Assembly (NCBI GenBank): GCA_016182235.1
Contig: JACOXT010000003.1
Span: forward strand, 451,488-515,487
Direction: 5' to 3'
Length of the DNA stretch: 64,000 bases
DNA from: Candidatus Levyibacteriota bacterium
Lineage (GTDB): Bacteria; Patescibacteriota; Microgenomatia; Levybacterales; UBA12049
In this document: positions 36,300 to 59,465 of the stretch, piece by piece
Numbering within the stretch: position 1 is the first letter of the stretch
Layout: the number at the start of each line of letters is the position of its first letter
Program-made: the position numbers and the translations under genes
The notes under the pieces: model-generated
The model's database searches: none
Seen by the model: the letters and a program-made list of their open reading frames with translations, nothing else
Told to the model about the DNA's origin: nothing

Positions 36300-37127
36300 A
36301 TGAGTAGAGTGGAAACTTTTCCCAGGCCAACACAAGTTGAAATCCCTAAAGTAAAGAACATGCCTCTTTCTGATATTGTTCCTGAACCGGAGAGGCGATC
36401 CTCACCTCCCGGATTAATAACTGTTGCGGGCCATGAACTCAACCATGCTCTGGTCGCACTGGCTCATGGGATACCAATTGTTAGTCTTTCCGTAATGCCG
36501 AAAGGCGACTCACTAGGCAGAACAGTTATCGGAGGGTGGGTTTCAACGGAAACGATGAAGGTAATCGCGGCAGGCGGAGGGGTTGAGACGCATGATGGAA
36601 GCGCGGAGGGCTTTGGAAGCGATAAATACAAGGTAGATGTCATGCATCATTTTCATGGCGGGCATTCCTGGGACTCGGCAAGAAATCAAGCCGCGAGTAT
36701 CGTTTCCAGATTTTCAAATAGAATTAGGGAAAGAGCTGCGGAAATTATAGCTTATTTGGGGACAGTAGCAGGATCACTTATTGGAGACATAATGCGTCGT
36801 GCGCAAATGGAACTTGATCAAGAAAAAGGAATCGAAACAGAGCAATTAATATTAGTTTCAAACCCTCAGCAGGAATATAAATATAAAACAATTATTGACG
36901 AGCTTCCGGGCAATGTGCAAAGAATTAGATATGTAGTGGTAGGAGTAGTTAAAAAAGAAGAATATCTTTGCGGAATTTGCCAGGGAATAAACAGCCATGA
37001 AGAAGATTGCCCAAACGCAAAACTCAAAGAAAATTCGGATGAATCTAAATCTTCCCCAAAACCGCTAACAAATGAAGGGATAATTATCTCTTTCCCAGTC
37101 CGCAAGCCTCTAAAACTTGTTGCATGA
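36300..37127 (+). CDS. putative Zn-metallopeptidase-like protein (HExxH) with C-terminal Cys-rich zinc-ribbon-like motif
   Basis: AGHELNHALVALAHG (HExxH) and CGICQGINSHEEDCPN. GC content of about 48% against about 33% in the flanks. Confidence 0.45.
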   Translation: MSRVETFPRPTQVEIPKVKNMPLSDIVPEPERRSSPPGLITVAGHELNHALVALAHGIPIVSLSVMPKGDSLGRTVIGGWVSTETMKVIAAGGGVETHDGSAEGFGSDKYKVDVMHHFHGGHSWDSARNQAASIVSRFSNRIRERAAEIIAYLGTVAGSLIGDIMRRAQMELDQEKGIETEQLILVSNPQQEYKYKTIIDELPGNVQRIRYVVVGVVKKEEYLCGICQGINSHEEDCPNAKLKENSDESKSSPKPLTNEGIIISFPVRKPLKLVA

Positions 37128-37291
37128 TAGGTTGATATATAATGAATTGAAAGACTGAATGGTGAAAAAAAGTAGAGAAGAGATTATAATAATGGTATAA
37201 ATTCAAATGCGAAAGAGAATTTAAAGGCGACTAGTGTATTGGCGAAATTCGTAATTAAAAGGAACACTTAAAGAAAATAATAAAGAAGTAG

Positions 37292-40024
37292 ATGAATAAA
37301 CTGCAAAAAGAAGCAAAAGAAAAAATTAAAGAACTTATCGGTAAGTATGAGTTAGCTGTTGTGGCGGGGCAAATTAAGAAGTACACGGAAGAAGAGACAA
37401 AAAATTCTTTTATAAAACCTCTTTTTGAAGCTCTAGGATGGGATTTTTCAGAAAAAAACGAAGTCTCTGCGGAAGAAAATATTATATCTTCAGGCAGAGT
37501 TGATTACGGATTTTATATTAACGGTCGAGCCAAATTTTATCTTGAAGCAAAAAAGTTAAAAGCGGATTTAAATTCGGAAGAATTTGCCCGCCAAGCAATT
37601 AGATACGGCTTCAATAAGGGCGTTACTTGGGCTGTTTTAACTGATTTCGAAAGCATCAAGGTCTTTAATTCCCAAGCTCTTTCAAATTATTTAGGGGATA
37701 AACTGTATTTTGAAATAAATTATTCGGAATATTTAGAGTGTTTGGATCAATTATGGCTCTTGTCAAAAGAAGCATTTGAAACTGACCTAATTGATAAGGA
37801 GGCTGAGAAAGCAGGTAAGAAATTACAAAAAGTTCCTGTTACTGAGCTTCTCTATAAAGATTTAAATGAATGCAGAAAAATATTGACAGAATATTTGGGT
37901 AAATGGAATCCGAAAGTGACAAAAGATCTTTTAGATGAAGGTGTACAAAAATTACTAGATAGATTAATTTTTATCAGAGTTGCCGAAGATAGAAAAATTG
38001 AACAGAATATTTTAGTTCCTTTAATTAATCAGTGGAGAGCTTTTGCTGGTAAGAATAAACCCGAGCTGTATGAATCCATGGCTGACAAATTTAGAGAGCT
38101 TGATGATATTTACAATTCCAATCTATTTACTCCGCATCCTTTTGAGAAATGGGAGGACGATGGCGGAGCGCTAGAGAAAGTCATAAAAATTCTACACGGA
38201 AAATCAGGTTATTATGAATATGACTTTAGTGTTATGCCGGCTGATGTTTTAGGAAGTGTCTATGAAAATTACTTGGGACATAAATTATCTCAGTCTAAAA
38301 AAGGACTGACGTTGGATAAAACAGCAAATAAAAGAAAAGAACAGGGAATTTACTATACTCCAACTTTTATAGTTGATTATATTGTCAGAAATGCTCTAAA
38401 ACCAGTTTTGGATAAGTGCAGAAGCATTAATGATTTGAAGAAAATTAAAGTTTTGGACCCTGCTTGCGGTTCGGGATCTTTTCTCATAAAAGCGTTGGAA
38501 GTTATAGCGGAAAAGTACAAGGATTTTAACGCTCCAATAAATGAGTTTACGAAAATACAAATAATTTTAGAGAATTTATATGGAGTTGATTTGGATATGC
38601 AAGCGGTAGAAATTGCAAGACTTAATCTACTGGTTAATACTCTCGAGGAAAAAGGCAAACTGCCCTCTTTGGACAAAAATATAAAGAATGGCAATTCGTT
38701 GATTTCAGGAACAGACGAAGAACTGGAAAAATATTTCGACAAAAACTTCAGAGACAAAAAACCTTTTAATTGGCAAGAAGAATTTCCGGAAGTCTTCAAG
38801 CAAGGTGGATTTGATGTAATAATAGGCAATCCTCCATACATTTTTGCTCGGGGTGGTAATTTTGATGACAATGAAAAAAAATATTATTATGACAACTATA
38901 AACTTCAAAAATATCAGATTAATACGTACCTTCTTTTTATAGAACGCACATACAACTTACTTAAACAGAACGGGAGATTAGGGTTCATAGTTCCTAACAA
39001 CTGGTTAACGATAAGCACTTTCAAGAATCTTAGAGAATTTATCCTGAAGGAGATGGGGGGAGTAAGAATAATTAATACTGTTGAAGCAGTATTTTCTCAG
39101 GCAAGTGTTGATACTTGCATTCTAATATTTGAAAAGTCAAAACCAACAGAAATTCAACTTGGAGAGCTAAGGGAAAATCAAGCACCATTAATGAAAAAAT
39201 ACAAGCCAGAAGATTTTTATGCGAACGATTTTATAATAAATATAACAAAAATATCTAGCCTTAAAGGCAATGCTATATTGAACAAAATAGATAGCAATTC
39301 CCTTTCTCTTAGTGACATAGCAAGAGTGTCTTCTGGGTTAAAAGCTTATCAGGAAGGCAAAGGTAAGCCGATTCAAACAAAAGAGATTAAAGAATCAAGA
39401 AAATATCATTCTCAGAAAAGACTAGATAAAACTTATTTTCCATATTTACAAGGTAGCGATGTCAAACGATATTTTCTTGACTGGTCTAAGGAATACTTAA
39501 GTTATGGTGATTGGTTAGCCGAACCAAGAAAATCTGTTCCCTTCAACGGCCATAGAATCTTAGTTCGGCAAATACCTTCTTCTTTACCTTACTGCATAAA
39601 TGCTGCATATACAGAAGATTACTATTTTAACGATATTAACAGTATGGTTATTTTCGATTCGATTAGAGGATACGATCTTAGATACATTCTGGGTATTATA
39701 AATACTAAGTTAATTTCCTATTGGTTTGCAAATGTTTTTGATAAATTTCAACGTAAAATATTCCCACAATTTAAGGTAAATGAGCTAGCTAAATTTCCGA
39801 TTTATAAGGCAGAAAAAAATAAACAAAAAGCAATTATTGAATTGGTTAATAAGATAATGCAGCTTAAGAAAGATTTAAAAAAATTAGATGCAAATTCCAA
39901 TAAATGGGTCAAGATAAAAGAAGAAATAGAAAAAACGGACAAAAAAATTGATGAAGAAGTCTATAAACTCTATGGTCTCACGCAGGAAGAAATTAGAGTT
40001 GTGGAAGATAATAACGAGAACTAA
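37292..40024 (+). CDS. Type IIG/IIL restriction-modification enzyme (MmeI-like): N-terminal PD-(D/E)xK nuclease, gamma-class N6-adenine methyltransferase, C-terminal TRD
   Basis: N-terminal ...GRVDYGF..FYLEAKK (D...E-x-K), methyltransferase motif I VLDPACGSGSFL, motif IV IGNPPY. 910 aa, close to the MmeI family size. Confidence 0.75.
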   Translation: MNKLQKEAKEKIKELIGKYELAVVAGQIKKYTEEETKNSFIKPLFEALGWDFSEKNEVSAEENIISSGRVDYGFYINGRAKFYLEAKKLKADLNSEEFARQAIRYGFNKGVTWAVLTDFESIKVFNSQALSNYLGDKLYFEINYSEYLECLDQLWLLSKEAFETDLIDKEAEKAGKKLQKVPVTELLYKDLNECRKILTEYLGKWNPKVTKDLLDEGVQKLLDRLIFIRVAEDRKIEQNILVPLINQWRAFAGKNKPELYESMADKFRELDDIYNSNLFTPHPFEKWEDDGGALEKVIKILHGKSGYYEYDFSVMPADVLGSVYENYLGHKLSQSKKGLTLDKTANKRKEQGIYYTPTFIVDYIVRNALKPVLDKCRSINDLKKIKVLDPACGSGSFLIKALEVIAEKYKDFNAPINEFTKIQIILENLYGVDLDMQAVEIARLNLLVNTLEEKGKLPSLDKNIKNGNSLISGTDEELEKYFDKNFRDKKPFNWQEEFPEVFKQGGFDVIIGNPPYIFARGGNFDDNEKKYYYDNYKLQKYQINTYLLFIERTYNLLKQNGRLGFIVPNNWLTISTFKNLREFILKEMGGVRIINTVEAVFSQASVDTCILIFEKSKPTEIQLGELRENQAPLMKKYKPEDFYANDFIINITKISSLKGNAILNKIDSNSLSLSDIARVSSGLKAYQEGKGKPIQTKEIKESRKYHSQKRLDKTYFPYLQGSDVKRYFLDWSKEYLSYGDWLAEPRKSVPFNGHRILVRQIPSSLPYCINAAYTEDYYFNDINSMVIFDSIRGYDLRYILGIINTKLISYWFANVFDKFQRKIFPQFKVNELAKFPIYKAEKNKQKAIIELVNKIMQLKKDLKKLDANSNKWVKIKEEIEKTDKKIDEEVYKLYGLTQEEIRVVEDNNEN

Positions 40025-40045: not shown

Positions 40046-41128
40046 TTGAATATGGCATACCCACTTATCATTTTAGGAGCAGGTGCATCCTTTGACTTTC
40101 AAGATCTTTTAGATTATGAGGGAAGCAATGACATTATTAAGCTACTTGAATGGCGTCCTCCACTTGTAAATAAAATGTTTGATGTTGCGCGACTTGGAAG
40201 AATAATTGGAAACTATGATGATGTTAAACCACTTGCCTCAACAGTAAATAATCTTGTTAAAAATAAAAATATCAACTTTGATTTTGAAAAGCATTTGTCA
40301 CAAATAGAAAGCAAGTATCCTGAAAATAGCTATAAACAGATAATGGCCTTAAGGTTTTACCTTGCAGAACTTTTTAGTAAAATTTCTTACTACTATTTTA
40401 GACATACAAATAACCATCTTCATTTAATTAACGAGGTCAATAACAGAGGAGGAAATGCCTGTGTTGTAAACTTTAATTATGATACTTTATTTGAAAAGAA
40501 TATTAAAACTATCGGTAATAATGATAATATCGATGCCTATATTTCAGGAAACATCAAGATAATTAAAATACACGGTGCTCATAATTGGCGTTACAGCCCC
40601 AAAGCAGCAATTGCTAAAACTGGTGTTTATGATTTTTTTATATCTGGAGGGCGGAGCTTCTATGAAGAATATAAAGATCATGAAGTTGATCCAACAACTA
40701 CAAAAATTCTTGACTACAGTAAAGAAAATTTTGACCTAAACGAGTATAGGAAAAGTAGGGAAGATAAAACCCTCTCTATCAACACATGGCTATACTACTT
40801 ACCTGCAATAGCAATACCTATAGGGACAAAAGGAAATCACGTATGCCCAAAAAAACACATAAACACTTTAATTGAACAGTTAAAGATGGTTGACAGGATT
40901 CTTGTTATTGGATGGCGCGTTCAGGATGAGTACCTTTTATCACTATTAAAAGCACACTTACAAAATGGTGTTAAGTTAACTGTCGTATCTAGTGGCAATA
41001 CCTCAGCAAAAGAATACATAGAAAAGTTTAAGGCAATAATTCAAATAAAAATTCTAGACATGACTTTTCCTAATAATGGATATACAAATTTTATGATTAA
41101 CGGAGGGATTGAACGATTTTTATCATAA
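40046..41128 (+). CDS. SIR2_2-like (Thoeris ThsA/DSR-type SIR2) domain protein, putative NAD+-consuming defense effector
   Basis: LIILGAGASFDF (GAGxS), VVNFNYDTLFE (NYD motif) and IKIHGAHNW (HG motif). Confidence 0.6.
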   Translation: MNMAYPLIILGAGASFDFQDLLDYEGSNDIIKLLEWRPPLVNKMFDVARLGRIIGNYDDVKPLASTVNNLVKNKNINFDFEKHLSQIESKYPENSYKQIMALRFYLAELFSKISYYYFRHTNNHLHLINEVNNRGGNACVVNFNYDTLFEKNIKTIGNNDNIDAYISGNIKIIKIHGAHNWRYSPKAAIAKTGVYDFFISGGRSFYEEYKDHEVDPTTTKILDYSKENFDLNEYRKSREDKTLSINTWLYYLPAIAIPIGTKGNHVCPKKHINTLIEQLKMVDRILVIGWRVQDEYLLSLLKAHLQNGVKLTVVSSGNTSAKEYIEKFKAIIQIKILDMTFPNNGYTNFMINGGIERFLS

Positions 41129-41264
41129 CTCATGAAATTTGACCAACCGGTAAAAAATTATGAGGAGATATAAAACTAAATTGTTCGATATTGCAACCCA
41201 GACAGAACGAAAATTTACATGATAAAATCTCAAGAGATACTTGTGGAGATATTTAAAAAATAAT

Positions 41265-41420
41265 ATGGGTAAAAGTAAAAAAATTATTGTAAAAGGAAGC
41301 AAAATCGGTATCATCTTACATATTGGGGATAATGATTTTATCTCTCTAACCGATATGGCAAAATATAAAACTTACTGGTTTGGGGACTGGTTTGGGGACG
41401 GTCCTCGGAGGTGTTGTTAA
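41265..41420 (+). CDS. 51-aa ORF resembling a KilA-N/Bro-N-like N-terminal fragment (possible mobile-element remnant)
   Basis: MGKSKKIIVKGSKIGIILHIGDNDFISLTDMAKYK... The 3-prime end overlaps the TTTGGGGAC repeat motif. The assignment is weak. Confidence 0.2.
   Translation: MGKSKKIIVKGSKIGIILHIGDNDFISLTDMAKYKTYWFGDWFGDGPRRCC
41378..41410. repeat. GGTTTGGGGAC x2 + GGTCCTCGGAG motif (copy 1 of 3)
   Basis: ggtttggggactggtttggggacggtcctcggag. Confidence 0.6.
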
Positions 41421-41547
41421 GACACTCCAAAACAAACGCTGTTCTTGGAGCACCCACAACTCACCCTTAAATACTTGAGAATATTGGCATGTTATCGATT
41501 ATCTATTTCTTTTACTATCTCGAGCATGAAGGAGTAGATGTCTATTT

Positions 41548-42198
41548 CTATTGTTCAATTGCTAAAACCTGAAGGTGACTTTCGTGTTGTTCCAGAACCC
41601 CGCCATATGTCTGAACATATATGGATACAGTATGGTTTCCGGCAGATACAGGGAATACTCCGTTTACCGCTAAAGGAACTGCGGCATTTGCCGTAGTCAT
41701 AGTCGTTTGGTTGAACACTGCTTGATCAATATCATCAATATAAATATGGTAGAGGTGCTGAAATCCTCCGACTGTATTTCTGGTATCAACGTCGTAGTTT
41801 ACCCATAGAAGGCAATTTTCCGGGCAATTGGCTGTAATCTCATCAGGCGTTTTTACACTGTGTGGGTGTGTTATAGAAGTGCTAAAGAAAGATCCCCTTC
41901 TGGACCATATTCCAAAAACTATTTTATTTGATAAATTCTTGTTTTCAATTTCTTCAATTTTTGCAGACATTGTCGCATCATTAGTCTTGAGATCCTCTAT
42001 ATCGTCTTCATTTTGACTGACCCTGTTACTTAGGTCGTCGATGTCTTTTGACAAATTTGAGATAGCATCGGATATGAGTTGTTCAACTTGTACTATTGTT
42101 GCGAAAATGGGATTATTTACAGGTGCCGCTTTTACTAACTGGGGAAAAGCTAGGATGCCAGCAAGGAAAAGAAGCAGGATTGTTCTTTTAACTACCAT
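41548..42198 (-). CDS. secreted coiled-coil protein with C-terminal beta-rich domain (hypothetical)
   Basis: Signal peptide MVVKRTILLLFLAGILAFPQLVKA, then an acidic coiled-coil (DDLSNRVSQNEDDIEDLK), then a C-terminal globular domain. Flanked on both sides by the GGGGAYGGTCCT motif. Confidence 0.6.
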   Translation of the reverse strand: MVVKRTILLLFLAGILAFPQLVKAAPVNNPIFATIVQVEQLISDAISNLSKDIDDLSNRVSQNEDDIEDLKTNDATMSAKIEEIENKNLSNKIVFGIWSRRGSFFSTSITHPHSVKTPDEITANCPENCLLWVNYDVDTRNTVGGFQHLYHIYIDDIDQAVFNQTTMTTANAAVPLAVNGVFPVSAGNHTVSIYVQTYGGVLEQHESHLQVLAIEQ

Positions 42199-59393: not shown

Positions 59394-59465
59394 GAGTCCG
59401 TAGCTCAGCGGTAGAGCGTTGCATTCACATTGCAAATGTCGGAGGTTCAAATCCTCCCGGGCTCA
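59394..59465 (+). tRNA. tRNA-Val (anticodon CAC)
   Basis: Manual cloverleaf. 7-bp acceptor stem (GAGTCCG/CGGGCTC with one G-U), D arm GCTC-AGCGGTA-GAGC, anticodon arm TTGCA-TTCACAT-TGCAA, T arm GGAGG-TTCAAAT-CCTCC. A73 discriminator, and no encoded CCA. Confidence 0.85.

Follow-up and report, generated by a model that had tools for sequence, protein, structure and literature searches.

A single-domain SIR2-like protein from a Candidatus Levybacteria genome and its family, a probable immune effector recurrently linked to restriction-modification loci

SIR2 proteins of the immune branch and the Levybacteria gene

Immune proteins of the SIR2 superfamily are referred to as SIRim and are set apart from the classical sirtuins by a helical 'variable loop', the lack of a zinc site and the presence of at least seven strands (bioRxiv 10.1101/2024.09.18.613514). 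In classical sirtuins, the zinc-binding cysteine tetrad is linked to the binding of the acyl-lysine substrate (bioRxiv 10.1101/2024.09.18.613514). Two described systems are of particular relevance here. The SIR2 proteins of the SIR2-HerA (Nezha) systems are NADases (PMC11472057; PMC11514289); they are described as forming a dodecameric ring (PMC11472057; PMC11514289) and need the HerA ATPase as a partner. AbiH is a lactococcal abortive infection (Abi) protein encoded by a single gene, which was placed among the SIRim proteins (bioRxiv 10.1101/2024.09.18.613514) and is described as sirtuin-like in a 2026 review (PMC13064643). The gene examined here occupies positions 40046..41128 of the forward strand of a window of 64,000 nucleotides, i.e. 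the whole stretch of DNA that was analysed, from contig JACOXT010000003.1 of a Candidatus Levybacteria genome, which belongs to the candidate phyla radiation (CPR). On the basis of its motifs and of a predicted structure, its product is assigned to the SIRim/SIR2_2 immune branch as a putative SIR2-superfamily enzyme. The family it represents is new and unannotated, within a known kind, the stand-alone immune SIR2 proteins. It has no name in Pfam, NCBIfam or PADLOC.

In the list of open reading frames (ORFs), the gene encodes 360 residues from a TTG codon. The ATG at 40052 is probably the true start, with a product of 358 residues, because homologs begin with MAYPL or MSYPL and because the identical NCBI protein (P0001, hypothetical protein HYT07_02770 from a Candidatus Levybacteria metagenome-assembled genome, 100% identity) is 358 residues long. 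A preliminary description of this stretch, made from the sequence without database searches, had presented the product as a stand-alone SIR2_2-like protein of about 360 residues, with no recognisable sensor domain such as SLOG or Macro, much smaller than the DSR proteins and encoded next to a restriction-modification (RM) enzyme. These points hold: SLOG and Macro matches were absent from the profile scans, 358-360 residues compare with about 1000 or more in DSR proteins, and the upstream ORF at 37292-40024 encodes a Type IIG RM enzyme.

The family is large and made up of single-domain proteins, usually of about 330-400 residues. A database search returned 281 relatives, all full-length, of about 330-380 residues. 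With the family profile, an exhaustive HMMER search retrieved 4,720 representative clusters below E 1e-3, of which 1,609 were also below E 1e-30; the best 150 of the 4,720 were all single-domain proteins of 197-406 residues that covered the whole profile. Its distribution is patchy: in 185,579 species genomes, a search with a pattern prefilter, which can only give a minimum, detected at least 98 relatives. The hosts, as named in record titles, include Patescibacteria, Acidobacteriota, Nitrospira, Bathyarchaeota, Chloroflexota, Actinomycetota and Bacteroidota. No match was obtained by tblastn against the plasmids of PLSDB and the phages of INPHARED, and no relative was found in a scan of IMG/VR viral contigs.

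Motifs and fold of the SIR2-like protein

The preliminary description had located the SIR2 motifs in the N-terminal 200 residues, correctly so, and all three align to solved SIR2 proteins. The NAD-binding loop GAGAS (residues 11-15, 40076..40090, forward strand, as are all features of the gene) follows strand beta-1 and aligns with GAGAS of the SIR2 protein 8j4u_A. The catalytic NYD motif (N144-Y145-D146, 40475..40483), at the end of beta-2, aligns with TTNYD of 8w9l_A, and the catalytic histidine motif (H176-G177, 40571..40576), within KIHGxxNW, with KLHGSINW of 8w9l_A and 8yhx_G. Among 65 aligned family members, residues G11, A12, G13, N144, Y145, D146, E150, K174, H176, G177 and W181 are invariant, as are P253, P258, C267, H271, G289, W290 and D294; A14 and S15 show a conservation of 90% or more. 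Few parts of the protein are as well conserved as residues 251-300. They begin with a family-specific segment of low column entropy, LPAIAIPxxxKxxxVCPxxH (residues 251-271, 40796..40858), in which K262 is at least 90% conserved.

The similarity to known SIR2 proteins is marginal for the query alone and clearer for its family. The query matches Pfam SIR2_2 (PF13289) with E 0.01 and 16.4 bits, below the gathering cut-off of 24.5 bits, a score reached by nine of ten relatives examined individually. In the set of 65 relatives, SIR2_2 was matched by 50 (E<=0.01), a PADLOC SIR2 model by 49 and the Argonaute-associated SIR2 (Aga_SIR2) models by 29. A single-sequence phmmer search of the PDB with the query gave no match, SIR2 structures being reached only by the family profile, which matched 8w9l, the SIR2 subunit of a Paenibacillus SIR2-HerA system, at E 6.6e-5 with correspondence of the TTNYD and K(L/I)HGxxNW motifs. 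The NCBIfam scan of the query returned nothing meaningful.

It had also been proposed that the C-terminal 150 residues were unrecognisable and formed a novel tail, making of the protein a candidate for a new effector-sensor pairing. This proposal was not supported, the C-terminal half being part of the SIR2 fold, an outcome that the preliminary description had itself named as counting against the pairing. Within it lie the fourth SIR2_2 motif and the last three Rossmann beta-alpha units (residues 284-360, 40895..41125), as delineated by DSSP strands, invariant residues and SIR2 profiles. The fourth motif, IGW..D (residues 288-294, 40907-40927), aligns with GYS..D of the solved SIR2-HerA SIR2 proteins; its sequence VIGWRVQDEYLLSLL is canonical, with the invariant G289, W290 and D294. 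The segment VIGWRVQDEYLL, previously cited as unrecognisable, was aligned by HMMER to CGYSYKDQHI of 8w9l and to IGYGFPDEHI of 8yhx. Alignments to the SIR2 models of Pfam and PADLOC extend through query residues 305-337, and the PADLOC SIR2 model PDLC04082 on its own matches residues 270-337 (E 1.1e-4). In relatives that exceed the Pfam cut-off, the SIR2_2 domain extends from the NYD motif up to residue 285-305 or thereabouts (139-305 in P0033, against profile positions 3-111 of 141, 34.0 bits), so that most of the domain as defined by Pfam falls within the C-terminal half. A profile restricted to the C-terminal 110 residues gave only non-significant matches in the PDB, the best being a designed protein (E 0.056), while the SIR2 protein 8yhx_G (E 0.79) was aligned at the equivalent position.

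Structure prediction followed by a Foldseek search, both suggested in the preliminary description, yielded a single compact SIR2-type domain matching sirtuins, with no separate C-terminal domain. The AlphaFold2 model, built on a 65-sequence alignment, has a predicted local distance difference test score (pLDDT) of 92.9 and a predicted template-modelling score (pTM) of 0.92. According to DSSP, it contains 11 strands in total. Residues 1-176 supply just three of the Rossmann strands (6-10, 138-142 and 170-173), and the other three (284-288, 309-314 and 334-340), each followed by a helix, lie in the C-terminal part. Foldseek found 172 matches in the PDB at E<=1e-3, the top ones all being sirtuins (1ici, Sir2Tm, SIRT2/5, CobB) aligned over about 360 columns, with template-modelling (TM) scores over the target of 0.52-0.58. 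The best TM score over the query, 0.45-0.48, was obtained with the SIR2 protein of Escherichia coli SIR2-HerA.

Two insertions complete this core. An all-helical module follows beta-1 (residues 16-137, 40091..40456, with DSSP helices between 21 and 133); it contains no zinc-binding cysteines and measures 110-127 residues across the family. A second insert, at residues ~181-250 (40586..40795), contains KILDYSKENFDLNEYRK and is the sole non-canonical part of the protein. It is hypervariable and rich in indels, with the highest column entropy (2.4-3.2 bits), a gap fraction of up to 0.57 and a length of 50-78 residues across the family, and pLDDT dips to 77 at residues 221-230 within it. As no other part of the protein is so poorly conserved, this insert does not appear to be a conserved ligand-sensing domain. 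The entire 358-360 residues are thus predicted to form one Rossmann-type NAD-binding domain, with no fused sensor.

The three marks of SIRim proteins, namely a helical module after beta-1, the absence of a cysteine tetrad and more than seven strands, are all present. Classical sirtuin deacylases carry a four-cysteine zinc ribbon in their small domain, whereas the small domain of the present protein is all-helical and the whole protein has only two cysteines, C139 and C267. A housekeeping sirtuin was rejected in view of the lack of a zinc site, the patchy distribution and the defence-related context.

Within the immune branch, the best profile matches among solved structures are the SIR2 subunits of SIR2-HerA systems (8w9l, 8j4u, 8su9, 8sub, 8yhx). 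They share the motifs TTNYD, K(L/I)HGxxNW and G(Y/W)xxxD with the family and are likewise single-domain proteins, of 381-428 residues. Nevertheless, the sequence similarity is marginal, and no HerA-like gene was found in the window neighbourhood of the SIR2-like gene or recurring beside family members. The catalytic domain, with its conserved asparagine and histidine, is also that of ThsA, DSR1/DSR2 and the SIR2-APAZ protein of SPARSA. These proteins have additional parts, SLOG or Macro domains in ThsA, large C-terminal sensor regions in DSR proteins of more than 1000 residues, APAZ and a prokaryotic Argonaute partner in SPARSA, whereas here the SIR2 fold accounts for the whole protein. Membership in the ThsA group of Thoeris effectors was rejected, there being no SLOG or Macro match and no TIR protein ThsB encoded beside the window gene.

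By its architecture, the protein resembles AbiH (PF14253), a stand-alone product of a single gene with a predicted SIR2/SIRim fold and no fused sensor. AbiH is about 346 residues long and, to our knowledge, its mechanism has yet to be described. As it stands alone in the SIRim branch, it provides a precedent for a sensor-less SIR2 protein of ~350 residues. On profile evidence the two families are distinct. The query has no AbiH match at E<=1; weak matches occur in 11 of 65 family members (best E 1.7e-4), and two relatives score 17.5 and 18.2 bits against a cut-off of 30.9. Moreover, AbiH was reported mainly on lactococcal integrative conjugative elements, whereas the present family is found in CPR, Acidobacteriota, Nitrospira, Bathyarchaeota and other lineages, often inside RM operons. 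The eukaryotic human proteins FAM118B and FAM118A (SIRanc), set beside the family by description only, are likewise single-domain SIRim proteins of the immune branch without a fused sensor.

A distant sub-clade, mostly from Bacteroidota (L059, L060, L064, L069, L073-L076 and L080), has longer proteins of 436-487 residues, with an N-terminal extension of about 90 residues in L080. At two of these loci, L059 (4857-6698) and L064 (4862-6700), a UvrD-like helicase gene lies upstream and is coupled to the SIR2-like gene at 3-5 nt; helicase and SIR2-like gene may form a distinct two-gene system.

Genomic context in relatives and in the window

The genomic context was analysed at 80 loci from species-representative genomes, and partners were sought by all-against-all clustering of 1,072 neighbour ORFs. 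No neighbour family was common to more than eight loci, which implies that the SIR2-like protein has no obligatory partner, and the families that did recur were all RM components. RM genes accounted for 16 of 156 immediate neighbours and for 6 of 559 genes separated from the family member by four positions or more, an enrichment with an odds ratio of 10.5 (Fisher p=3e-7). An RM neighbour is missing from no fewer than 68 of 81 loci. Relatives that share at least 52% identity with the query form its closest clade, and there RM genes adjoin the family member in 7 of 10 contexts.

One recurrent arrangement places the SIR2-like gene directly upstream of hsdR. It was found in eight loci (L001, L003, L005, L007, L010, L024, L084 and L088), the distance between the two genes ranging from -38 to +3 nt, and where the Type I operon is complete the gene sits between hsdS and hsdR. 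At other loci the RM component is of another type or order: a Type ISP enzyme gene overlaps the SIR2-like gene in L017, and in the Bacteroidota loci L047 and L067 hsdS lies directly downstream. Protein identities are discordant between the linked genes. Two clades of HsdR proteins can be distinguished, with only 31% identity between them; the HsdR of L007 is 64-69% identical to those of the L003 group, while its SIR2-like protein is only 34-37% identical to theirs; and the Type IIG enzyme of the window is 30% identical to that of L004, the SIR2-like proteins of these two loci being 54% identical. Because of these discordances and of the differing RM types, the RM linkage is not one inherited unit. 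The nesting of defence genes in Type I RM, BREX and DISARM systems is a known type of arrangement (bioRxiv 10.1101/2024.01.29.577857), and in S. thermophilus SIR2-HerA pairs were reported as insertions between RM systems (PMC11514479).

Some of these operons show further peculiarities. The hsdR gene downstream of the family member in L001 (1669-4760) is split into three ORFs of 207, 150 and 603 residues, which could reflect the decay of this restriction subunit or a mistake in the assembly. In L088 (5898-6953), a gene for an SduA_C (Shedu nuclease-like) protein is lodged in the hsdS-hsdR gap just upstream of the SIR2-like gene; in L084 (5588-7004), the same position is taken by a gene for a 3-keto-disaccharide-hydrolase-like protein and a 207-residue ORF. 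The extra cargo of these two loci suggests that the hsdS-hsdR gap is a multi-gene insertion hotspot.

The remaining neighbours include ABC/SMC ATPases, UvrD-like helicases and AbiEii; together with the SduA_C gene of L088, the reverse transcriptase of L090 and a TIR gene in L085-L087 (both described below), they make up contexts typical of defence islands. Other contexts are housekeeping in nature, with uvrC and secG in L002/L081 and lepA in L029. On three similar contigs (L090-L092, 5217-5624), a gene for a NUDIX hydrolase of 135 residues lies 14 nt upstream of P0017, a relative with 52% identity; this enzyme could act on ADP-ribose products. Genes for a reverse transcriptase and for helix-turn-helix proteins are also present in L090. 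On a Bryobacterales chromosome (L022, 4808-11037), the family member stands between genes for a Phage-tail_3-like protein and for a protein with a non-contractile tail sheath TIM-barrel domain, which suggests that this copy is borne by a prophage or a tailocin.

In the window, the immediate neighbours of the SIR2-like gene are the Type IIG RM gene and a gene for a secreted coiled-coil protein. The former (37292..40024, forward strand, 910 residues) was identified by Pfam matches to Eco57I (3.8e-41), N6_Mtase, TaqI_C and HSDR_N and by the PADLOC model REase_MTase_IIG (1.9e-117). Its stop codon is separated from the start of the SIR2-like gene by 21-27 nt, and neither a terminator-like nor a strong promoter-like site was found in this gap. 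The best promoter-like site, GTGAAA-17-TATAAT (37162..37190, forward strand, 10/12 consensus match), lies 5' of the RM gene and is a candidate operon promoter; it is a consensus match only, the total of such sites being no higher than expected from shuffled sequence. The two genes are probably co-transcribed, as there is no terminator or strong promoter between them and the best promoter-like site precedes the RM gene.

Upstream, between glmS and the RM gene, an ORF of 275 residues (36300-37127, forward strand) has weak matches to M50-like peptidases (E 0.012-0.03). Its GC content is unusually high for the window (0.426 in the 36-37 kb bin, against about 0.36 overall), and that of the RM/SIR2 segment is lower, at 0.31-0.34. 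Taken together, these values would fit an islet acquired by horizontal transfer and lodged between glmS and the mraY-ftsW-murG cluster. Past the end of the SIR2-like gene, the 420-nt gap at 41129-41547 holds an ORF of 51 residues (41265-41420, forward strand) that begins with MGKSKKIIVKGSKIGIILHIGDNDFISLTDMAKYK and stops just past a tandem duplication of 12 nt (TGGTTTGGGGAC twice, ~41377-41400). This ORF resembles what is left of a truncated gene and is possibly a scar of the RM/SIR2 insertion. We take it to resemble the N-terminus of KilA-N, a likeness that no Pfam match confirmed. The next gene (41548-42198, reverse strand) encodes a protein of 216 residues that starts with a signal-peptide-like stretch, contains a coiled-coil segment and is beta-rich towards its C-terminus, and for which the Pfam, PADLOC and NCBIfam scans gave no significant family match.

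All 57 ORFs of the window were scanned with PADLOC. The RM gene dominated the best 25 matches, among which there was no TIR or cyclase. The scan also returned one mREase_IV match (E 8.5e-20) and one PbeA match (E 8.1e-23), the latter of which may be a housekeeping protein of the cysteine-desulfurase type. A tRNA gene lies at 59394-59465 on the forward strand.

Function of the family

Building on the computed fold, single-domain architecture, conservation of catalytic residues, family size and RM linkage, the explanation that we regard as probable is that of an autonomous AbiH-like SIRim NADase, acting as a defence effector and often carried as cargo of RM loci. We infer in this case an NADase activity, an anti-phage function and a mode of activation. 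The protein would be kept inactive until phage infection. The trigger would be direct recognition or oligomerization through its own variable surfaces rather than a second-messenger sensor. NAD+ would then be consumed through the invariant N144/D146/H176 site and the infected cell would stop growing, i.e. undergo abortive infection. Carried by an RM locus, whether beside a Type IIG enzyme as in the window or between hsdS and hsdR as in relatives, the gene would provide two defence layers in one transcription unit.

Among the alternatives, a function outside defence fares best, although we consider it unlikely. The protein could be a sirtuin-like enzyme, a divergent deacylase or ADP-ribosyltransferase, with a cellular protein or an RM protein as its substrate, for example in order to tune restriction, or else a toxin-like addiction module stabilizing the RM islet. 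The catalytic residues are indeed common to protein-modifying sirtuins, some members reside among housekeeping genes (L002/L081 and L029), and co-transcription with the RM gene would suit such a role. These points are countered by the lack of a zinc-binding cysteine tetrad in a protein with two cysteines, by the patchy distribution, by the immune SIR2 models being the closest in PADLOC and by the enrichment of the neighbourhood in RM and defence-island genes.

A somewhat smaller probability is given to a guard function comparable to that of PrrC, whose mechanism is established and which is almost exclusively RM-embedded (bioRxiv 10.1101/2024.01.29.577857). The SIR2-like NADase would be bound and silenced by the RM complex (Type I HsdMSR in relatives, Type IIG in the window) and freed once RM is disabled by an anti-restriction protein of the phage (Ocr, Stp or ArdA-like), thereby aborting the infection. 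As with PrrC in EcoprrI, a suicide effector would be co-transcribed with a restriction enzyme, and its gene lies, in relatives, between hsdS and hsdR of a Type I operon: the eight relatives upstream of hsdR occupy the prrC position (hsdM-hsdS-X-hsdR) and are translationally coupled to hsdR. The tight linkage is moreover repeated with differing RM lineages (two HsdR clades, Type IIG, Type ISP, and hsdS in Bacteroidota). However, PrrC associates an ABC-ATPase with an anticodon nuclease, of a fold and chemistry unrelated to those of a SIR2 NAD-binding domain, and the window partner is of Type IIG and not Type I. The SIR2-like family is mostly not RM-embedded, so its members must be able to work, and to stay off, without an RM enzyme at the large majority of loci. 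The hsdS-hsdR gap also houses unrelated cargo in L088 and L084, as expected of an insertion hotspot. Were the guard function true, genome-reduced CPR bacteria would gain a two-layer, self-checking defence in one operon.

A Thoeris-like protein, in which an N-terminal SIR2 effector would be fused to a novel C-terminal sensor of a TIR or cyclase signal, is highly improbable: residues 181-250 are indeed family-specific and without counterpart in canonical sirtuins, and the relative P0011 (57% identical) adjoins a CAP12-type TIR protein, but the C-terminal half consists of the fourth SIR2_2 motif and three Rossmann units through which SIR2 profiles align, the model shows one domain, the non-canonical stretch is the least conserved part, contrary to what is expected of a ligand-binding sensor, and that TIR neighbour is the only one among about 90 loci, no TIR or cyclase recurring among 152 immediate neighbours. 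The locus concerned (L085-L087, 5820-6908) encodes this CAP12/Pycsar-type TIR protein of 362 residues 92 nt upstream of P0011 on the same strand, in an island that also contains a Type ISP enzyme, a DUF2726 protein and a serine recombinase.

If the preferred explanation, an autonomous SIRim defence effector, is correct, the family would constitute a large set of minimal immune effectors of the SIR2 type, present above all in lineages that have received little study, namely CPR/Patescibacteria, Acidobacteriota, Nitrospira and Bathyarchaeota. It would add to the few cases, AbiH and FAM118, in which a bare SIRim domain senses and responds without a fused sensor. Such a sensor-less family raises the question of how minimal NADases stay off. 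The recurrent embedding directly upstream of hsdR is the part worth following up, as this site offers a testable case of whether genes embedded in RM loci are hitch-hiking or serve as a functional back-up of the restriction enzyme.

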